From Escherichia phage phiEC1, in the sequence record KY608965.1: a stretch of 64,000 nt of DNA; one strand, given 5' to 3'. The notes below the pieces were generated by a model that was not told the DNA's origin, searched no databases, and saw only the letters and a program-made list of their open reading frames with translations. This document shows, piece after piece, positions 4,238-18,047 of the stretch. Each line of letters starts with the position of its first letter. Positions within the stretch are counted from its first letter, which is position 1. Position numbers and translations under genes: made by a program.

Positions 4238-4245
4238 GTATTTAT
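4238..4245 (-). promoter_or_regulatory. T4-type late promoter motif TATAAATA
   Basis: tatttata on plus, about 24 nt upstream of the ATG at 4214. Confidence 0.4.
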
Positions 4246-4823
4246 AACAACCCTGTCAAATCATTCCAATGCTTCCGGCATAATGACACGTATCTATCGG
4301 TATCACCAATTTCAATTTGACTGCCATCTGTAATTGGAAGTCCATCTTCCGTGACTCTAGCTACCATTGTGGCCTTTTTACCGCAATGACAGACACCTTT
4401 AAGTTCAACAAGCTTATCGGCAATAGCCATTAATGCTTGAGAACCTTCAAATAGATTACCTTTAAAATCTGTTCGTAGTCCATATGCCATTACCGGCACA
4501 TTGTATACGTCAACAATACGACTAAGTTGATACACCTTTTCAGTAGTTAAGAACTGAGCTTCGTCAACAAATACACAGTGAATATCCTTTTGTGCTGCAG
4601 CCCATTTATAGAATTCAAAGATATCCATGTCTTTTGTAATTATATTGGCATCTTGACGAATACCAATACGAGAGACTATTTCACCTTTTGAATCACGAGT
4701 ATCAATAGCCGGTTTAAGAACTAATACACCCATGCCACGTTCTTTATAGTTATGTGCGGCAGTAAGTAATGAAGCAGACTTACCAGCGTTCATAGCGGCA
4801 TAGGTAAAAATTAAACTAGCCAT
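4242..4823 (-). CDS. tk: Thymidine kinase
   Basis: 193 aa; MASLIFTYAAMNAGKSASLL P-loop and C-terminal CHCGKKA...SLCRKHW zinc motif, near-identical to remembered T4 Tk. Confidence 0.95.
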   Translation of the reverse strand: MASLIFTYAAMNAGKSASLLTAAHNYKERGMGVLVLKPAIDTRDSKGEIVSRIGIRQDANIITKDMDIFEFYKWAAAQKDIHCVFVDEAQFLTTEKVYQLSRIVDVYNVPVMAYGLRTDFKGNLFEGSQALMAIADKLVELKGVCHCGKKATMVARVTEDGLPITDGSQIEIGDTDRYVSLCRKHWNDLTGLL

Positions 4824-12232: not shown

Positions 12233-12473
12233 CTCGGTCCCATGATTTGGCCATTAATTCGGACATAAATTCTTCAATGCGTGTTTCTTTAGATGGACTT
12301 TCACTATTAGAGACCGCAAGTTTGTAATCTGCAATAGGACGGAACAAATCAAGGTCCATATTAAGATCGTCTTTGATTTTTTCTTCTGACACATCTTTAT
12401 CGTATGTGTATAGATAACTATCACATGATTCCGATTTAATGTAAATTGCTATACTCATCTCAAATTCCTGCAT
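12222..12473 (-). CDS. Hypothetical protein
   Basis: 83 aa acidic ORF. Confidence 0.4.
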   Translation of the reverse strand: MQEFEMSIAIYIKSESCDSYLYTYDKDVSEEKIKDDLNMDLDLFRPIADYKLAVSNSESPSKETRIEEFMSELMAKSWDRDDE

Positions 12474-12946
12474 TCGGTAATAAAACGTTCAACTTCGTTA
12501 TTCTTGGCCTTTATCTTGTCTTTACGTTCCTGTAAACTACTTTTAACAAGATTAATAATGATGCCTATAGTACCTCCACCAATTATACCACCAATTATAC
12601 TTACGATAGTAGATGCCAATAAGATAGCGATAATATCTGGTATGGCAAAGGCACTTACTTTAGTACTAAAAAACCATACCGACGGTACAAATATAATCCA
12701 TCCTGTTATCCATTGGCACTTATTGAAAAACTTTTCAAGATCAGCTTGAGTTGTTCGTATTACTTCATCGATAGGTTGATATCCATTAATGTATCTGTTC
12801 ACGATAATACCTGCTGGCTGGTCGATTTTAAATTCTTGGCAAATACGTTTCACTAAGTAGGATGGACATCCTGTCCAATCCACCGAATAGTACGAAATAC
12901 CTTCATTGCCGTCGTCAATATTAGACCAATATGTTTTGTTAATCAT
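12455..12946 (-). CDS. Membrane protein with conserved FITECR C-terminal tail
   Basis: 163 aa; hydrophobic segment plus Gly-rich IIGGIIGGGTIGII; C-terminus ERFITECRNLR. Confidence 0.45.
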   Translation of the reverse strand: MINKTYWSNIDDGNEGISYYSVDWTGCPSYLVKRICQEFKIDQPAGIIVNRYINGYQPIDEVIRTTQADLEKFFNKCQWITGWIIFVPSVWFFSTKVSAFAIPDIIAILLASTIVSIIGGIIGGGTIGIIINLVKSSLQERKDKIKAKNNEVERFITECRNLR

Positions 12947-13632
12947 TACCAGCCTTCCATAGGGAATTCCAGATAAACTTGGGCATTGACACGAATTTCA
13001 TTGGTAATCTTTTTAACTCGGTCTGTATTACGAGATACACGTCCGAACCAACGCCATCCATTACTAATTGCACGAGAACCAGTGTGCCATGTTTGCCAAT
13101 CAAACTGAAGAAGAGTACGGTCCGGAGCTTCCCATTTCTCTAGTTCACCTTTTTCAATTTTTTCGAGGACTTCTTTGTGCCACTGGCGATAGATAAGTTC
13201 GCCATCAGGAATCTGACTGAACTCTGCAGTTCCTGTTGCAAAATGAGTAGGACACACGTCAGCGTTAACAAGACCAAGAATATGTTCAGAATGGTAACGA
13301 GGGTTGTCATAATCAGGTTGTCCTGCAGTAATAAAATGTTGACCAACCGGAATATCCGGGCGTGGTACATCATCATGGTGATAACCTGGGATAGCAGGAT
13401 ACCAACCAGGCATCAGCATGTGGACTCGTGAATCAAATACAACCTGGTCTGTGTTCCAATCATCTGGCAAGTTCATGATGAAGCTGCGAGTAATAGGACC
13501 GCCGTTATTATAAGCAAATTCTAAACTACAGTTGAAGAACATAGGCTCGTTCTTGATTTTATCATTAGAAATACCGCCGGCAAAACCACCTACTGCACGA
13601 GCTTGACTATTAAACACTTTAGAACTATTCAT
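12946..13632 (-). CDS. Hypothetical protein
   Basis: 228 aa; His/Trp-rich, no motif I can assign. Confidence 0.45.
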   Translation of the reverse strand: MNSSKVFNSQARAVGGFAGGISNDKIKNEPMFFNCSLEFAYNNGGPITRSFIMNLPDDWNTDQVVFDSRVHMLMPGWYPAIPGYHHDDVPRPDIPVGQHFITAGQPDYDNPRYHSEHILGLVNADVCPTHFATGTAEFSQIPDGELIYRQWHKEVLEKIEKGELEKWEAPDRTLLQFDWQTWHTGSRAISNGWRWFGRVSRNTDRVKKITNEIRVNAQVYLEFPMEGW

Positions 13633-13633
13633 A

Positions 13634-13939
13634 TTATTTTCCTCGACATTCTTTAATGAAATTTTCTAGATTGGTAGATTCAATAGCTTTTTTACGAGCT
13701 TCTGCGTGTTCTTCTTCAGACAATTTACATTTATAATTAACCCAGACGTTATGGTCAAAACTAGTCGTGGCATATAATAACAAAGCCCCGACGAATAATA
13801 AAAATGGTGATAAGAATACAAAACCAGGAACACCATCCATATCGTAAGCCTTTTGTAATACTGCAACAGAAAGAGCTGCGTAAAAAGGTGATGCAAATAT
13901 TGTTAAAAGACCAATTCGGTTGGTTTCGCCTAATTTCAT
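13634..13939 (-). CDS. Small membrane protein with FIKECR C-terminal tail
   Basis: 101 aa; two hydrophobic segments; C-terminus ENFIKECRGK. Confidence 0.45.
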   Translation of the reverse strand: MKLGETNRIGLLTIFASPFYAALSVAVLQKAYDMDGVPGFVFLSPFLLFVGALLLYATTSFDHNVWVNYKCKLSEEEHAEARKKAIESTNLENFIKECRGK

Positions 13940-13959
13940 AATATTCTCCTCATGTTTTA

Positions 13960-13997
13960 ATAGGACTACTATAACATAGTCCTATAATTGGGTAAAC
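13960..13997 (-). promoter_or_regulatory. Early promoter cassette (PeSL-like)
   Basis: ataggactactataacatagtcctat with gtaaac at 13992-13997. Confidence 0.5.
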
Positions 13998-14009
13998 AGT
14001 TTTGTGAAG

Positions 14010-14966
14010 TTATTTGAAAGGTTTCACCATATGAAAATTTTCTTTAAACCGTTTGATGTAATCATTTTTGCCGAGCTTATGATACATAGCCACTACTTCA
14101 TAATAGTTCTCGTATGCGTACTCACGGAACCATCCTGACGTGATTGAAGTACAGACTTTTTCTAATGCCATCATGAAACTGGCTTCAGGGTTAATTTCAA
14201 AGTTATTAGGAATCTGAGAACGTTCTAATGCTAGTACACATGATTCTTCGTATACACCGGCCAATTTGACCATTTCCGGTAATGATTCGAACTTCTCGCG
14301 TGAGGTCATGACTTCAGAACCATCTTTCATGTAAAATGTATACGCTGGACGGTCTGTTAGTGCAATGGCTTCGTGAATAGTATCATGGTCATACGTATAG
14401 ATGTCATCTTTAAAGAATGCGCTTTTAGAAGTGTCAAGAACTGGGTGAGCATAGTTCAAGGTTTCTTTCTGGCGTTTCAGCATAATTTCAGTAAGTTCAT
14501 CGTTCAGTGTAACACCTTTACCACGAAGATACTGAATATGGTTCATAGTCTTTAAAAAGAATGGATTATTTTTCTTGAAACGATGGGACATCTTAATTGC
14601 AAGGCACATCTCAGGAGTTGCCCAGTAAAACCCGTTCAAACGGTCTTTAGTCAAATTTTTCTTGGCGTATTTTAAAAGGTCATAAGAAGACGTGAAATCT
14701 TCAGGAGTGAGTTCACCGACTAATTCACGGACATTAGTGATTGCCGGAACAATATATGCTTCAAAATGAGTTTCGCGTCCGTTATGAAAACATTTGAAAA
14801 CCTGGACGTCAGGGTTATCTTGGTGAACATATACACCCATCATTTGATTTTTGAATGCATTCCAAGAACCTTGGTCCGCAATAAAGTCCCAATCGCTATT
14901 TTTGATAGCGCTAGAATCAATAAGGCCGTGATAGTGAAGTGCACGAGAACCAATAACTAACATCAT
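14010..14966 (-). CDS. Hypothetical protein
   Basis: 318 aa ORF. Confidence 0.45.
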   Translation of the reverse strand: MMLVIGSRALHYHGLIDSSAIKNSDWDFIADQGSWNAFKNQMMGVYVHQDNPDVQVFKCFHNGRETHFEAYIVPAITNVRELVGELTPEDFTSSYDLLKYAKKNLTKDRLNGFYWATPEMCLAIKMSHRFKKNNPFFLKTMNHIQYLRGKGVTLNDELTEIMLKRQKETLNYAHPVLDTSKSAFFKDDIYTYDHDTIHEAIALTDRPAYTFYMKDGSEVMTSREKFESLPEMVKLAGVYEESCVLALERSQIPNNFEINPEASFMMALEKVCTSITSGWFREYAYENYYEVVAMYHKLGKNDYIKRFKENFHMVKPFK

Positions 14967-14991
14967 AATATTTTCCTCGAATTTAGATTAC

Positions 14992-15243
14992 TTAAATTTC
15001 ACGACATGCGATATTATATTCATCCCAGAGGTCGTCATGTGAAGCCTCTACCAAAGGAACGATTGTACCGTTTATGTCTTCATTATAAGGACAAATTGTA
15101 CAGTGCGCATCTTCGAATCGGATGCCTTTGTGTTCAGATTTTTTATAACGCATATCGAATATCTTTGCAAACTTTTCACGACTAATAGTTTTAGCAACTA
15201 CTTCGGTTCCGATACTTTCGTAATAAATCATTGTAGACTCCAT
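14992..15243 (-). CDS. Hypothetical protein
   Basis: 83 aa ORF. Confidence 0.4.
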   Translation of the reverse strand: MESTMIYYESIGTEVVAKTISREKFAKIFDMRYKKSEHKGIRFEDAHCTICPYNEDINGTIVPLVEASHDDLWDEYNIACREI

Positions 15244-15250
15244 TTAATTT

Positions 15251-15290
15251 GATAGGACTACTATAACATAGCCCTATCTTGTTGTAAACT
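15251..15290 (-). promoter_or_regulatory. Early promoter cassette (PeSL-like)
   Basis: gataggactactataacatagccctatc with gtaaac at 15285-15290. Confidence 0.5.
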
Positions 15291-15293
15291 GTT

Positions 15294-15491
15294 TTAGCAA
15301 GAATAACTAGATGATACCCAGCCTTGAACAGTAATACTATTATTTGATAACGAGATTGCGTCCTGGAGATTCAGACCTGCGTTATCTTCAATCCACAATG
15401 TAACTTCTTCACGTTCTTCGGTTGCAATTTGGAACAGGTTTTCCAGGGCAGCTACTGCCGTACGTACAGCACAATCTAATTCACGAGACAT
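15294..15491 (-). CDS. Small protein, member of tandem WVSSS..C-tail family
   Basis: 65 aa; C-terminus QGWVSSSYSC. Confidence 0.45.
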   Translation of the reverse strand: MSRELDCAVRTAVAALENLFQIATEEREEVTLWIEDNAGLNLQDAISLSNNSITVQGWVSSSYSC

Positions 15492-15500
15492 ATTATTTCC

Positions 15501-15773
15501 TTAACAAGTGTGAGAAGATGCAACCCAACCGCCATCTTCAAGGCTCAGGTTGTAGTCGTATTGGTAAACGTCGGCCCATTCAGCATAGCCGTTTTTTGTA
15601 CAACGTTCAAGATCGGCTTTAAGCTGTCCGGGTGAATGATAGGTTCCACCCATACCATAAGCTGGATACAAGTCGAATGTTGTGTTTTGTTTATCAGCAA
15701 TTTCTTTGGCAGCCTCAATAGCTGCATAGATTTTTGCTACAGCTTCAGCCAGCTCGGTTTGTTCTTTAGACAT
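15501..15773 (-). CDS. Small protein, member of tandem WVSSS..C-tail family
   Basis: 90 aa; C-terminus GGWVASSHTC; shares G.GGTY/GRTY core with next gene. Confidence 0.45.
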   Translation of the reverse strand: MSKEQTELAEAVAKIYAAIEAAKEIADKQNTTFDLYPAYGMGGTYHSPGQLKADLERCTKNGYAEWADVYQYDYNLSLEDGGWVASSHTC

Positions 15774-15782
15774 AATGATTCC

Positions 15783-16088
15783 TTAGCACAACGCAGAAGA
15801 CGAAACCCAAGCACCTTCAGTAATAACGTAACCATTACCTTCACGCTTAACATCGCCACCATTATTTTCAATTTCATTTTTCATCCACTGAGATACGATT
15901 TCACCCTTAGGATAATAAGTACGACCGCTACCATAATCACCTACAGAAAATGATACGGCATATTGGTCTGCGATCTTTGTTGCTTCTTCTTCGATACGTT
16001 CAGCTTGATTTAGAAGTTTATAAATTGCATCTGAAGCGGATTTGGCATCATTAAACTCTGGTACTTTAATTTCAATAATCTTACTCAT
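15783..16088 (-). CDS. Small protein, member of tandem WVSSS..C-tail family
   Basis: 101 aa; C-terminus GAWVSSSALC. Confidence 0.45.
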   Translation of the reverse strand: MSKIIEIKVPEFNDAKSASDAIYKLLNQAERIEEEATKIADQYAVSFSVGDYGSGRTYYPKGEIVSQWMKNEIENNGGDVKREGNGYVITEGAWVSSSALC

Positions 16089-16444
16089 TTTCTACATTCC
16101 TTAATAAAGTTTTCGATTGTTTCATTTTCACGTCTAGCTAGGAGTTCATTATAACTAATCATTTGAGAAGCGTAAACCTTTTTATTTTTCTTGTTATGGT
16201 TTATAAAATCGTAGTAAAAATAGACTACAGTACAAAAGGATGCTATTGATGCAAAGGCTTGGGTATACCGTAAGTCCTGCCATTGGTCTGTGAATCCACC
16301 AGTGTTACCTATAAATCCTAACACAACGCCGTCAATAAGAAATCCAACTAATCCAAAGGCAAATCCCATGCCGGCGCTCATGATAAAAATTAAAATATTC
16401 TCACCAAGAGAAGGCCATACGGTTAAGAGTTGAGGCTTTTGCAT
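16085..16444 (-). CDS. Small membrane protein with FIKECR C-terminal tail
   Basis: 119 aa; hydrophobic N-terminal half; C-terminus ENFIKECRK. Confidence 0.45.
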   Translation of the reverse strand: MQKPQLLTVWPSLGENILIFIMSAGMGFAFGLVGFLIDGVVLGFIGNTGGFTDQWQDLRYTQAFASIASFCTVVYFYYDFINHNKKNKKVYASQMISYNELLARRENETIENFIKECRK

Positions 16445-16848
16445 CTTATTTCCTTAACGAATTCCATAGCTTCTTCATATTCATACTTTTTAACAGCTTC
16501 ATCATACTGAGCTTGGGCTTTTGCGCACTGAACTTTCCACTCGCGAACTCGAGCTCTGTGATGACGGCCTTGGTGCCAATATCCTGCCCAATTAATAGGC
16601 ATTAATAAAAACGGTACAATAAGTGGTGCGACGAACATTAATGAAAACGCTGCATCAGACGATATAACTTTATTGGAATCTAAAATAGCTCCTATAATCA
16701 TAAAGATTAAAAATGCTAAAGCTAAAATAGGGCCAAATAGTACTTCGTTTGGGATTAATTTACGTTTGTATTCGTATGCCCAGGGCTTAATTGGCATGTA
16801 CAGGGTTGGCTTTGACATATTCTCTACATTCCATAATAAATTGCTCAA
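16423..16848 (-). CDS. Small membrane protein with related C-terminal tail
   Basis: 141 aa; two hydrophobic segments; C-terminus EFVKEIRCKSLNS. Confidence 0.45.
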   Translation of the reverse strand: MSNLLWNVENMSKPTLYMPIKPWAYEYKRKLIPNEVLFGPILALAFLIFMIIGAILDSNKVISSDAAFSLMFVAPLIVPFLLMPINWAGYWHQGRHHRARVREWKVQCAKAQAQYDEAVKKYEYEEAMEFVKEIRCKSLNS

Positions 16849-17410
16849 GGATTAAATTGTTAGTGAAATTAGGACTAACAACCATAGTTTCATAAAGCGC
16901 ATCAATAGCACTTAAAGCATCAACTCTTTTAAGCAAAGGCTCGCCTTCATACATAGTTTCAGAATCGACGATTAACGTAAAGTAATATTTTTTATTATCG
17001 ACTAGAACTTCAGTATCGATATAAAACATATTAGACCTCAGAAGCTTATCTCTAAAACCATAATAATCTTCAGAGCGTTCGCTGATATATTCCCATTCAG
17101 TGTTTAAACAACAAACAGACCATGTAGGAGCAACAAAATCGGTGAATCTAATATCATGGTCTGCAACTAGTTTAGCAATAGCTCCGATATCATGAATCAT
17201 AATACCTGGGGCTAATAAAGATTTTCTGCTATGGCCAGCCGTTTTCTCAGTGGTCTCATAAGAAGCTGACCAGTACCATTTACGTCCAGTTGCAACATAT
17301 CGTAATGAATCAACTAAAGACGTAGGTGGATTTACCTTATTTCGGAACTCTTCGAACATTGAGTCAATATCATTATTTTGGTTTCGCATGTTAACTCCTT
17401 TATTATCCAA
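16787..17410 (-). CDS. Hypothetical protein
   Basis: 207 aa; contains QFIMECREY near C-terminus. Confidence 0.45.
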   Translation of the reverse strand: MDNKGVNMRNQNNDIDSMFEEFRNKVNPPTSLVDSLRYVATGRKWYWSASYETTEKTAGHSRKSLLAPGIMIHDIGAIAKLVADHDIRFTDFVAPTWSVCCLNTEWEYISERSEDYYGFRDKLLRSNMFYIDTEVLVDNKKYYFTLIVDSETMYEGEPLLKRVDALSAIDALYETMVVSPNFTNNLILEQFIMECREYVKANPVHAN

Positions 17411-17438
17411 AAGGAGGACAAAAGTCCTCCGTATTATT

Positions 17439-18047
17439 TTATTTCAAAGAGTTAATATATTCTTGTACATCAGCAGAAGTGGTTTCGACACCAGCTGGAG
17501 TGCCATTGAACGTTTCAACACGAGTCAGAGTGTCTTCGATATCAACCTTAGTCAGTGCAGCGATTTCAATTACATCATCGGCCGTAGAGATACCAAGGGC
17601 ATTAGCTGCTCGAGTTTCACGAATGTATTCGAGTTTGATTGCCAGATTCTGACGAGCATCGTCAAGTTCAACAACCTTACGAGCAATTTCAATTCGCATA
17701 GCGGCATACCCGTCAGCTTTTGTATTAAGTTGTTCGGCCGTTCGACGATACAGAAGACCAAGCTTAGCATGCATGGTAACATCTTGTCCTTCAGCCAGGA
17801 GCTTACGAATTTCACGTTCCTTAGAAGCGGCTTGCTTGTTCTTTTCATTAACAAGTTCGCGAATACGTTTTTCTTCATTAATAGATTTAACAGAAGCCGT
17901 TTTTAGTTCTTTGATTTGGGTAATCAACTTATCTGCAGCTGCGTTATACTGTTCTTCGACAGTCAGATTTTTAGCCATAGCAGTACTCAGTTTAGTGCGG
18001 ATGAATTCAACAAGTTTCTTCAGTGTGTTCATATTATTACCTTTCAA
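17439..18047 (-). CDS. Coiled-coil protein, possibly PspA/IM30-like
   Basis: 202 aa; heptad-rich charged sequence of PspA-like length; no diagnostic motif. Confidence 0.4.

Follow-up and report, generated by a model that had tools for sequence, protein, structure and literature searches.

In T-even phages, the proteins IPI, IPII, IPIII, and Alt carry an N-terminal capsid-targeting sequence (CTS; MKTYQEFI...), which directs packaging into the prohead and is cut off by the gp21 protease at L/I-x-E. Translational coupling in T4 makes use of Shine-Dalgarno sequences located inside the upstream gene and of ATGA stop/start overlaps. PspB/PspC and LiaI are small membrane partners of PspA-family proteins. 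This superfamily has been described previously (PMC8281802), as have the PeSLs, cassettes of an early promoter and a stem-loop that mediate modular shuffling in T4-type phages (PMC2839356, PMC4122927). Here, we describe a 64-kb stretch of DNA (the window) from a Mosigvirus, an RB69-like T-even phage, in which five adjoining early genes (e.5, e.4, e.3, RB69ORF133c, and e.2), all on the minus strand, each end with the motif F-I/V-x-x-C-R. This C-terminal segment is referred to below as the tail. The features of the locus are as follows.

17439 to 18032, minus strand: e.6 homologue, predicted to be all-helical with a long hairpin; candidate shared partner only.
17413 to 17430, minus strand: hairpin resembling a terminator, made up of GGAGGACTTTTGTCCTCC and a subsequent T run; located between e.6 and e.5.
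16787 to 17389, minus strand: e.5 homologue, soluble, 200 aa; tail core FIMECR at 16823 to 16840, followed by EYVKANPVHAN.
16423 to 16818, minus strand: e.4 homologue, two-transmembrane (2-TM) inner-membrane protein, 131 aa; tail core FVKEIR at 16444 to 16461.
16085 to 16444, minus strand: e.3 homologue, 2-TM, 119 aa; tail core FIKECR at 16091 to 16108.
13968 to 13996, minus strand: early-promoter-like site in a hairpin, TTTACC, 17-nt spacer, TATAGT; upstream of ORF133c.
13634 to 13939, minus strand: RB69ORF133c homologue, 2-TM, 101 aa; tail core FIKECR at 13643 to 13660, with Arg encoded by CGA.
12455 to 12946, minus strand: e.2 homologue, 163 aa, in which a soluble N-terminal domain precedes the 2-TM hairpin and the tail; tail core FITECR at 12467 to 12484.

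All five tails reported by the first-pass annotation are present, and the observation turned out to be wider than first noted. The ends of e.2 (...ERFITECRNLR), ORF133c (...ENFIKECRGK), and e.3 (...ENFIKECRK) lie exactly where they had been placed, each directly before the stop codon, and the tails of e.4 and e.5 end with ...EFVKEIRCKSLNS and ...QFIMECREYVKANPVHAN, respectively, again directly before the stop. For the latter two genes, the tails stand but the proposed starts do not. The start of e.4, a gene previously placed at 16423 to 16848, is most likely ATG 16818 rather than TTG 16848, giving a protein of 131 aa (MSKPTLY...) in agreement with the RB69 and T4 annotation; that of e.5, previously a soluble protein of 207 aa, is most likely ATG 17389 (200 aa) rather than TTG 17410.

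The tails are interwoven with the starts of the genes that follow them. The final 32 nt of e.5 overlap the start of e.4, and GAATGTAGAGAATATGTCAAAGCC is nucleotide-identical in T4 because it also encodes the MSKP start of e.4; the T4 orthologue of e.5 is 46% identical, and its tail reads FVKECREYVKA. The e.4 core is a Cys-to-Ile variant of the motif (FVKESR in the T4 orthologue, FIKEVR in those of Jiaodavirus and a Dhakavirus-like phage); its K-E codons, AAGGAA (16450 to 16455), form the Shine-Dalgarno sequence of e.3, and its RCKS is encoded in the overlap with MQKP of e.3. In e.3, AAGGAA (16097 to 16102) lies 8 nt upstream of the ORF139c ATG (16086 to 16088), the stop and start overlap as ATGA, and the junction sequence quoted earlier, ATTAAGGAATGTAGAAAATGA, was found at this boundary. 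ORF133c, whose homologues are restricted to Mosigvirus, shares eight identical residues with the e.3 tail (ENFIKECR) and shows four synonymous differences from it, and its R-G-K codons (13639 to 13644) contribute GAGGAA as the Shine-Dalgarno sequence of ORF132c. That of ORF130c is AGGAA, drawn from the R-N codons of e.2 (12465 to 12469), and the e.2 stop overlaps the next ATG (12456 to 12458). The early-promoter-like site at 13968 to 13996 marks the start of the transcription unit ORF133c-ORF132c-e.2 and resembles PeSL elements (PMC2839356, PMC4122927); two PeSL-like sites are located within the tail-gene locus. Phage SA79RD has a terminator annotated at the place equivalent to the e.6/e.5 hairpin.

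The tail pattern occurs far beyond chance, and the motif is confined to this locus. In the six-frame translation of the 64 kb, F[IV][KTM]E[CI]R has exactly five matches, all at the five tail-gene ends; the looser F[ILV].E[CI]R recovers the same five only, in frame and 1 to 11 residues before the stops. Within the last 26 residues, F[ILV]xx[CIV][RK] is found in 5/98 window genes, compared with 0.39 on average and at most 3 for residue-shuffled window proteins (2000 shuffles). The complete T4 genome (273 ORFs) contains F[ILV]xxCR three times (shuffled mean, 0.028), in e.2b, e.3, and e.5, always in the last 24 residues. A scan of IMG/VR for ExFIKEC[R/S] yielded 46 matches. Those that are in frame, C-terminal, and preceded by a substantial ORF are e.3 (L004, L038), a T4-like e-region gene (L015), and an uninspected protein on a 128-kb contig (L028) with the motif 7 residues before the stop; the remaining matches lie inside larger proteins or very short reading frames (in L052, the motif ends a 22-codon frame) or are cut by contig ends.

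When the motif was looked for in other T-even phages, we obtained 47 nonredundant tails across 13 T-even-type loci, a sample of related phages in which counts are only partly independent, even per family. They were found in Mosig-, Tequatro-, Dhaka-, Karam-, Jiaoda-, and Roskildevirus, a Citrobacter phage, an unclassified 171-kb contig, and an Aeromonas Biquartavirus, and the number and order of tail-bearing genes differ in every genus. The carriers comprise 2-TM membrane proteins and many soluble proteins, the latter being 93 to 273 aa long and devoid of the TM hairpin. The carriers had been taken for a family of small membrane proteins. A common architecture is indeed seen in e.2, ORF133c, e.3, and e.4, each with a hydrophobic hairpin of 55 to 60 residues, K/R-rich termini, and a charged C-terminal segment of 28 to 51 residues behind the hairpin; a family by descent, however, was not borne out by significant similarity outside the motif. 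With the tails removed, BLAST (E < 1e-3) divides the carriers into at least 8 separate families and ~20 singletons. The best cross-family hhalign probabilities were 65% (F57 to e.2) and 58%, with 15% for e.3 versus e.4 and <5% for ORF133c versus everything, all based on shallow multiple-sequence alignments (MSAs); at this MSA depth, BLAST and hhalign on the tail-less bodies gave no convincing homology between families.

The tails may nevertheless be remnants of common descent, with the carriers being ancient tandem duplicates that are no longer recognizably related outside the tail, which would have been kept for a structural role within each protein (helix cap, homo-oligomerization, or stability), with no shared partner. 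Such a history would fit the alike N termini of e.3 and e.4 (M[SQ]KPxL) and their similar junctions, the hairpin/charged stalk/tail plan of the four membrane carriers, the weak e.3-e.4 link and those of F57 and L063_11576 to the C-terminal half of e.2 (58 to 65%), and the match of ORF133c to the e.2 PHROG (E = 0.002). We consider it possible but rather unlikely: soluble proteins without any hairpin bear the motif too, the tail is the sole conserved element over all of these families and singletons, and fixation of the same four residues on bodies this dissimilar is poorly explained by a purely local structural role.

The F-[IV]-x-x-C-R core is selected as protein and not as RNA. Synonymous sites are not conserved over the entire motif; Phe and Cys codon use is near background (TTT/TTC, 35/10; TGT/TGC, 22/17), and all six codons are used for the Arg. 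The same motif is located at a fixed terminus of unrelated bodies and is better conserved than these bodies, with within-family values for the core and the remainder of 1.00 versus 0.38 in e.2 and 0.85 versus 0.19 in e.5K; across five genus-level groups, the core positions of e.2 are 100% identical, compared with 38% for the remainder of the protein. The core is also intact in 11/12 tails whose downstream ATG is 14 to 65 nt away, and its distance to the stop ranges from 0 to 15 residues. The motif has no sharp limits, since about one-quarter of the tails have I, V, M, or S in place of Cys and some members are degenerate (FIRGIR, WVGDIR).

A position-dependent Shine-Dalgarno overlay is superimposed on this core. 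A Shine-Dalgarno sequence was defined as a purine-rich run 5 to 11 nt upstream of the next start and dependent on that start, and tails were assigned to a near class (next ATG ≤6 nt from the Arg codon; 24/47 tails) or a far class (14 to 65 nt). The two middle codons of the motif are all-purine only in the near class, where they read AAGGAA, AAAGGA, GAGGAA, or AGGAGC and the encoded residues vary (K-E, K-G, E-E, and R-S); with the ATG 8 nt away, nothing unusual is seen in the middle codons, and it is the rare AGG Arg codon plus AAx that forms the Shine-Dalgarno sequence. The middle hexamer encodes [KRE][EG] in 18/24 near tails versus 1/12 far tails (Fisher p = 2e-4), and with one value per family, all-purine hexamers account for 9/13 versus 0/8 (p = 0.005). 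Five or six purines are present in 23/24 near tails, compared with 3 to 5 of 6 in far tails (MWU p = 1e-6; family level, p = 5e-4), and AGA/AGG makes up 55% of near-class Arg codons against a background of 21% (p = 9e-4). The tail-borne Shine-Dalgarno sequences are spaced 7 to 11 nt from the next gene start. Tight packing of each gene against the start of the next is why the Shine-Dalgarno sequence of the following gene coincides with either the purine-rich middle codons (K-E = AAGGAA) or the Arg codon (AGG-AAx). The dual constraint proposed by the first-pass annotation therefore holds for the protein core and the ribosome-binding site, which are separable by position, but not for a special coupling element beyond an ordinary Shine-Dalgarno sequence: none of the five junctions has a more stable fold than shuffled sequence does (z = +0.08 to +1.54), with no RNA structure detected.

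These codon data also bear on whether the motif is a by-product of the downstream initiation region, with UUUAUUAAGGAA... serving as an A/U-rich enhancer plus Shine-Dalgarno sequence and the peptide being incidental. The Shine-Dalgarno-like middle codons of the 24 near tails, the enrichment of AAG and AGA/AGG, and junctions as unstructured as those of good initiation regions would agree with this, as would the natural e.3 deletion in phiE142, which retains the last 90 nt out of frame. However, synonymous codons are free at F, C, and R (Arg including CGT, CGA, CGC, and CGG), the core persists in the far class, in some cases across intergenic promoters, and the motif-to-stop distance is variable; moreover, the Shine-Dalgarno sequence has relocated from the middle to the Arg codon within the e.2 family without any change to F, I, C, and R. 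The by-product explanation is largely refuted for the core, and as an account of the tails we find it highly implausible. Alternatively, by analogy with the SecM/MifM-type arrest peptides of membrane proteins, the nascent tail might act on the ribosome through pausing or termination tuning and set re-initiation on the next gene. The position of the tails at gene ends, the ATGA overlaps, and the basic last residues could be read in this way; yet the variable spacing to the stop, the retention of the motif where no gene closely follows, and the lack of similarity to known arrest motifs make a nascent-peptide role scarcely credible.

Tails occasionally serve as crossover points. Among Tequatroviruses, e.2 is precisely present or absent, and the crossover of this indel falls inside TGCAGGAAA, which is common to the e.3 and e.2 tails; the short form, found in at least 33 of the 40 records listed, lacks e.2 and has a hybrid tail, FVIDCRKLK, joined directly to nudE. 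Together with the genus-to-genus variation in tail-gene number and order, this crossover would be expected if the tail-coding sequence were maintained for recombination, as the coding counterpart of PeSLs, to allow in-frame insertion and excision of cassettes. We regard such a purpose as very improbable, given that the conservation is of amino acids and that other indels, namely, a 3.1-kb Mosigvirus insertion ending at ORF132c/e.2 and the e.3 deletion in phiE142, do not use tails. Gene conversion between tails was not detected as an excess of within-genome codon identity (45.9%, versus 45.7% between genomes; permutation p = 0.47), and this equality indicates neither homogenization nor selection for nucleotide identity.

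The position table of the 47 tails gives the consensus hydrophobic(−3)-[E/D/N](−2)-x-F(0)-[I/V](+1)-x-x-C(+4)-R(+5)-(K/R). In this heptad-like pattern, residues −3, 0, +1, and +4 line up along the same side of an α-helix, so that the tail most likely forms a short amphipathic helix carrying an L/I-F-I/V-C stripe plus flanking Arg; a structure model of e.5 has the tail helical at low confidence but is unusable (pLDDT 37). From the K/R-rich termini and the positive-inside rule, all four membrane proteins are predicted to be N-in/C-in, so that the tail would be cytoplasmic, as the first-pass annotation had suggested. In membrane carriers, it would end a charged cytoplasmic stalk (25 to 50 residues) behind the 2-TM hairpin, and in soluble carriers, it would sit directly before a short basic extension. 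A helix of this kind might instead target membranes, like the C-terminal helices of MinD and FtsA, taking soluble carriers to the inner membrane and laying the tip of membrane carriers on it. The amphipathic pattern, in which F, I/V, and C make up one face bordered by K/R, and the occurrence on both soluble and membrane proteins are compatible with membrane targeting, but acidic residues are common (E at −2 in 17/47 and at +3 in 22/47 tails), which is unusual for helices that bind anionic lipids, the hydrophobic face is short, and lipid binding does not account for the near-invariant Cys and Arg. We judge it decidedly improbable.

The best overall explanation, to which we assign a probability of about 0.5, is that the tail is a portable, protein-selected C-terminal peptide motif acting as a docking or assembly helix, with the Shine-Dalgarno overlay on top. 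The fast-evolving and mostly unrelated early accessory proteins of the e-to-e.6 hyperplastic region would engage one conserved partner through it, which could come from the host or, like the adjacent e.6, from the phage. An intramolecular role (helix cap or self-oligomerization) would predict an identical sequence signature.

In all loci examined, the gene for the candidate partner e.6 lies directly upstream of the first gene with a tail. Its homologues also occur in phages without tail-bearing genes (Pseudotevenvirus EBPL and Morganella Mm5), and the link between e.6 and the tails is therefore not obligatory. The best Foldseek matches of e.6 are Vipp1/PspA; assignment to the ESCRT-III fold, which consists of an N-terminal helix, a long α1-α2/3 hairpin, and then α4-α5, is not secure. 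It is conceivable, though improbable, that the tails are docking helices for the highly conserved e.6 as a PspA/Vipp1/ESCRT-III-like membrane-remodeling protein, a scaffold that the variable 2-TM and soluble carriers would recruit or tune on the host inner membrane at an early stage of infection. If this were true, the locus would encode the phage's own "phage-shock-like" module, with adaptors exchanged in the form of cassettes.

The e.2 to e.6 genes are conserved and early expressed but have no assigned function even in T4, and a motif common to dozens of unrelated proteins at one locus offers a concrete handle on them; a single tail peptide could be used as bait or as a mutation target for whatever the carriers all touch. 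The locus is also a clean natural case of protein and ribosome-binding-site constraints overlapping within six codons, the two codes being distinguishable by the distance to the next start codon, and it illustrates that accessory genes can be gained or lost through in-frame crossovers for which a conserved coding motif happens to provide the site.

Compared with PspB/PspC and LiaI, the membrane carriers are likewise small inner-membrane proteins with cytoplasmic helical tails, as predicted here, encoded beside the long-hairpin e.6, but they share no sequence similarity with them (no Pfam matches). Ordinary T4 coupling resembles the present arrangement in that the Shine-Dalgarno sequence lies within the upstream gene and the stops of e.3 and e.2 share nucleotides with the ATG that follows; however, it accounts only for positions +2/+3 and the choice of Arg codon and leaves unexplained the conserved F, I/V, C, and R and the tails with no nearby downstream start. 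The CTS, whose N-terminal form is visible on IP genes in the tail loci examined, is similarly a short, portable terminal peptide on otherwise unrelated proteins of the T-even hyperplastic region, and its coding sequence can likewise double as short homology for cassette exchange. Unlike the N-terminal CTS, the tail is C-terminal, is carried by early membrane and soluble proteins, and has no gp21 cleavage site in register (its hydrophobic residue and E are adjacent). PeSLs occupy the same kind of region and are also short repeats at gene boundaries where indels occur; the papers describing them do not mention the tail motif (PMC2839356, PMC4122927). PeSLs, however, are regulatory DNA between genes in which the nucleotide sequence itself is conserved, whereas the tail is coding sequence that is conserved in its amino acids and free to vary at synonymous sites.

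The window belongs to an RB69-like T-even phage (Mosigvirus), and positions 12300-17500 share 95 to 96% identity with Shigella phage Shf125875 and many other Mosigviruses (94.7% with RB69). Five genes located between e.6 and nudE/e encode proteins ending in a tail with the core F-[I/V]-x-x-C-R (F at position 0, I/V at +1, C at +4, and R at +5); their names are taken from the RB69 annotation.

16787-17389, minus strand: e.5
16423-16818, minus strand: e.4
16085-16444, minus strand: e.3
13634-13939, minus strand: RB69ORF133c
12455-12946, minus strand: e.2

All five tails are exactly as the first-pass annotation described them. Two gene starts need correction: for e.4, the ATG at 16818 is more probable than the TTG at 16848, and for e.5, the ATG at 17389 is more probable than the TTG at 17410. 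A local Pfam library gave no family for any tail-bearing protein, and PDB sequence searches gave no match. Each of the five genes falls into its own PHROG without known function, with the exception of ORF133c, which weakly matches the e.2 PHROG (E = 0.002), and precomputed database labels (PF26896 for e.2, PF26876 for e.5) indicate that the individual e.2 and e.5 families have already been catalogued. Word-indexed protein searches with e.2 and e.5 found only relatives of >80% identity; an exhaustive HMMER search with e.5 returned Mosigvirus and Tequatrovirus clusters and nothing beyond, so that a deep alignment was impossible and the e.5 structure model was poor (pLDDT 37). Between e.6 and e.5, a GC-rich hairpin with a run of T behind it (17413-17430) is likely a leaky terminator that sets e.6 apart from the e.5-e.4-e.3 operon.

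The tail pattern is far beyond chance in both the window and T4. In the six-frame translation of the 64 kb, F[IV][KTM]E[CI]R gave five matches, as did F[ILV].E[CI]R, a looser form, all in frame and 1 to 11 residues ahead of the stops of the five genes. The expression F[ILV]xx[CIV][RK] occurs within the last 26 residues of 5 of the 98 window genes, against a mean of 0.39 in shuffled proteins; among the 273 ORFs of the complete T4 genome, F[ILV]xxCR is found three times (expectation, 0.028), each time at a gene end (e.2b, e.3, and e.5). Two candidates from relaxed expressions were rejected: thymidine kinase (4242-4823, minus strand), ending in ...DRYVSLCRKHWNDLTGLL (YVSLCRKHW), was judged a chance match within the tk C-terminal Cys/His region, which we take to be zinc binding, and Frd.3 (FYVNLIKK) is too weak. 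Across 2.9 million IMG/VR contigs, ExFIKEC[R/S] gave 46 matches. Those that are in frame and C-terminal with a substantial upstream ORF include e.3 (contigs L004 and L038), a T4-like e-region gene (contig L015), and a candidate protein on a 128-kb contig (L028); the remaining matches lie inside larger proteins or in very short frames or are cut by contig ends, and on contig L052 the motif closes a 22-codon frame.

A search of other T-even proteins, as the first-pass annotation had suggested, revealed that the motif is far more widespread than the five genes. The IMG/VR search for related loci gave few loci, and annotated phage records were used instead; the e-regions fetched were those of Dhakavirus IME08, Yersinia phage P8, two Karamvirus-type phages, Jiaodavirus JD18, Citrobacter phage Ursula, Roskildevirus FBB1, Aeromonas phage avDM2, and a 171-kb IMG/VR contig. 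Each contains one to about six genes ending in the motif. In T4, the tails are FVKECREYVKA... (e.5), FVKESRCKSQS (e.4), and FVIDCRKIK (e.3), and e.2, intact in other Tequatroviruses (162 aa), exists as two fragments, e.2a (102 aa) and e.2b (63 aa), of which the tail-bearing one (...NNFITECRKLK) is retained. The consensus of 47 non-redundant tails in total is a hydrophobic residue at -3, E/D/N at -2, any residue, F (43/47), I/V (45/47), K (20), E (22), C (36; otherwise I, V, M, or S), and R (43; otherwise K), after which come 0 to 15 residues, often basic. Several kinds of carrier occur: hairpin proteins with two transmembrane segments (94 to 195 aa); a soluble protein always next after e.6 (184 to 273 aa), with at least four BLAST-unrelated versions; and small soluble proteins (93 to 131 aa). 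In the searchable library, a full-text literature search for the motif strings FIKECR, FITECR, FVKECR, and FIMECR gave no papers, and searches by gene name yielded nothing pertinent. The observation of a shared tail is confirmed and extended by these data.

The carriers had been regarded as a family of small membrane proteins, a view that we replace with a shared motif on unrelated bodies. After removal of the tail and the six residues before it, BLAST (E < 1e-3) separates the bodies into at least 8 multimember families and about 20 singletons. Profile-profile comparison yields weak links: 58 to 65% between two short Karamvirus/Citrobacter families and the C-terminal half of e.2, 52% between one e.5-position protein and another, 15% between e.3 and e.4, and below 5% between ORF133c and everything else. 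The four membrane proteins of the window each have a hydrophobic hairpin of 55 to 60 residues, K/R-rich termini, from which an N-in/C-in topology is predicted, and a charged C-terminal segment of 28 to 51 residues. The carriers therefore have a motif in common and, in some cases, an architecture as well; descent of the complete proteins from one ancestor cannot be demonstrated. Among orthologues, conservation is far higher at the four core positions than in the remainder of the protein, with identities of 1.00 versus 0.38 in e.2, 0.85 versus 0.19 in the carrier family e.5K, 0.72 versus 0.42 in e.3, and 0.68 versus 0.44 in e.4.

The proposal that this conservation reflects both a shared peptide and a translation signal is borne out and can be resolved position by position; both constraints act, at different positions. 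Codons were counted over non-redundant tails. Synonymous codons of the core vary freely across the gene ends: Phe is TTT in 35 and TTC in 10 (background, 61/39), Cys is TGT in 22 and TGC in 17 (background, 59/41), all common codons of Ile and Val are in use, and Arg uses all six (AGA 17, CGT 10, AGG 9, CGA 6, CGC 2, CGG 1). The octapeptide ENFIKECR, identical in e.3 and ORF133c, is encoded with four synonymous differences. Selection on the core therefore acts at the amino acid level. Two biases stand out, AGA/AGG at 58% of tail Arg codons (background, 21%) and AAG at half of the +2 Lys codons (background, 27%), and both are explained by how far the ATG of the next gene lies from the Arg codon.

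Tails grouped by distance to the next ATG (middle codons, +2 and +3).
Within 6 nt (n = 24): middle codons form all-purine Shine-Dalgarno hexamers (AAGGAA, AAAGGA, GAGGAA, AAGGAG, AGGAGC, GGAGAT); AGA/AGG in 11/20 Arg codons; core 12/24
At 8 nt (n = 9): middle codons ordinary (ACCGAA, ATTGAT, TCCAGA); core 8/9
At 14-65 nt (n = 12): middle residues unconstrained (KY, MQ, NL, NY, DQ, DY, NS, AK, EY, RM...); Arg mostly CGT; core intact 11/12

In the nearest class, the encoded middle residues vary (K-E, K-G, E-E, R-S, G-D), and in the 8-nt class Arg is usually encoded by AGG, a rare codon, with AAx next to it, so that an AGGAA Shine-Dalgarno is generated. The residues [KRE][EG] occupy the middle positions in 18/24 tails near an ATG versus 1/12 far from one (Fisher, P = 2e-4), and the purine content of the middle codons is higher in the near class (Mann-Whitney, P = 1e-6), also with one value per BLAST family (13 versus 8 families, P = 5e-4; all-purine hexamers in 9/13 versus 0/8, P = 0.005). 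The shift of the Shine-Dalgarno is visible even inside one orthologue set: e.2 proteins with the next ATG 1 to 2 nt away end in FIKGCR or FIEECR with a purine-rich middle, and those with the ATG 8 nt away have FITECR with AGG-AAx. A third constraint acts at e.5/e.4 and e.4/e.3, where the tail overlaps the first codons of the next gene (ECREYVKA with MSKP and RCKS with MQKP, respectively).

We also considered and rejected GAATGY, in which the ATG within the E-C codons would serve as a downstream start; it opens a real reading frame in two cases only, and the RB69 annotation takes a later ATG. The T4 RefSeq start of nudE (MQEIKMK...) is an ATG inside the E-C codon pair (GAA-TGC) of the e.2b tail (T4 locus L003, 5485-5502, minus strand, and the e.2-nudE gap; T4T record HM137666), and the later ATG (MKTLSAG...) adopted in other records has an AGGAAA Shine-Dalgarno. 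None of the five junctions has a stable RNA structure, with z values (+0.08 to +1.54) no better than shuffled sequence, which fits open initiation regions rather than a structured form of the coupling element suggested by the first-pass annotation.

Tails can also serve as in-frame crossover sites, as indicated by an e.2 indel whose endpoints lie within them. Among Tequatroviruses, the whole e.2 gene is either present or precisely absent; the short form, found in at least 33 of the 40 records listed (including PST, RB32, RB33, and PP01), reads ...TTTGTGATTGATTGCAGGAAA|TTAAAATGAAAACA... (relative locus L008, 6708-6760), the e.3 tail being fused to the last part of the e.2 tail and nudE. The crossover lies inside TGCAGGAAA, 9 nt common to the e.3 and e.2 tails, and leaves the hybrid tail FVIDCRKLK. 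No gene conversion between tails was found by permutation comparison of codon identity: nonorthologous tails share 45.9% of synonymous codons in the same genome versus 45.7% in different genomes (P = 0.47). With no within-genome codon excess, and with the other indels of the region not using tails as endpoints, crossover at tails looks opportunistic rather than selected.

Several further features of the region were observed. A deletion has removed most of e.3 in the phiE142-type Mosigvirus (relative locus L005, 5975-6090) and likewise in G2469 and p000v; the remnant keeps the last 30 codons, out of frame with the kept ATG, and the AAGGAA Shine-Dalgarno for ORF139c, so that e.3 is dispensable there. 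Window positions 15783-16088 form a single 101-aa ORF, as in other Mosigviruses; the RB69 GenBank record (L001, 2913-3219) has it split into ORF139c and ORF138c, a difference suggestive of a frameshift in RB69 or an error in its sequencing. This ORF and its tandem neighbors at 15501-15773 and 15294-15491 (RB69ORF139c/137c/136c, minus strand) each end in G-x-W-V-S/A-S-S-x-x-C at the extreme C terminus, and ends of the type ...WVSSSxxC or ...W(Y/Q)xSSC recur in IME08, Yersinia P8, Karamvirus-type phages, Ursula, the 171-kb contig, and Aeromonas Assk; they constitute a second C-terminal motif family of the same hyperplastic region (PHROGs 899 and 4882). RB69ORF132c (12946-13632, minus strand; 228 aa), labeled a 2OG-Fe(II) oxygenase in one record, has a C terminus (...NEIRVNAQVYLEFPMEGW) that is near-invariant from Mosigvirus through Aeromonas phages and, where present, usually immediately precedes e.2; its neighbor ORF134c (14010-14966) contains DUF7275 and DUF7277.

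The hydrophobic tail positions -3, 0, +1, and +4 follow an i, i+3, i+4, i+7 pattern, flanked by Arg/Lys and with acidic residues at -2 and +3, a signature from which we infer that the tail would form a short amphipathic helix; the tail is also helical in the low-confidence e.5 model. In the membrane carriers, this helix would sit at the tip of the long charged segment, which is predicted to be cytoplasmic. About a quarter of the tails have I, V, or M in place of Cys, which suggests that the Cys acts as a small hydrophobic residue without need for thiol chemistry. One set of four residues is fixed on numerous unrelated bodies that evolve fast and are encoded at one locus; the most economical and best-supported reading is that the tail may be a helix for docking or assembly with one conserved partner.

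The gene directly upstream, e.6, encodes by far the best conserved protein of the block (88% identity to Tequatrovirus), still detected by tblastn in Morganella phage vB_Mm5 (about 24% identity, E = 5e-8). Its AlphaFold model (36-sequence alignment, pLDDT 77) comprises an N-terminal helix, a helical hairpin of about 55 plus 60 residues, and shorter C-terminal helices, and the top PDB matches in Foldseek are Vipp1/PspA of the ESCRT-III superfamily (PMC8281802), at probability 1.0 and E values between 3e-3 and 7e-2. The e.6 profile is colinear with Vipp1 (5-139 to 5-141), but at E = 1 to 2; given this mixed evidence, a Vipp1/PspA-like fold is assigned tentatively. Tails are seen solely in loci with e.6, and e.6 also occurs in phages without tail-bearing genes; docking of the tails onto e.6 as candidate partner is offered only as a lead.

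Cassette shuffling in the same regions is accounted for by early promoter plus stem-loop (PeSL) elements, which are intergenic and conserved as nucleotides (PMC2839356, PMC4122927); the tail is absent from both papers. Two sites in the tail locus resemble the published elements.

15260-15288, minus strand: PeSL-like early-promoter site
13968-13996, minus strand: PeSL-like early-promoter site

They are near identical (GTTTAC, 17-nt spacer, TATAGT) and lie in hairpins (ATAGGxCTA...TAGTCCTAT) upstream of ORF135c and ORF133c. In our judgment, the closest analogue of the tail is the N-terminal capsid-targeting sequence of T-even internal proteins, likewise a portable terminal peptide carried by unrelated bodies in a hyperplastic region; the two differ in the terminus they occupy, in their processing, and in the class of carrier protein.
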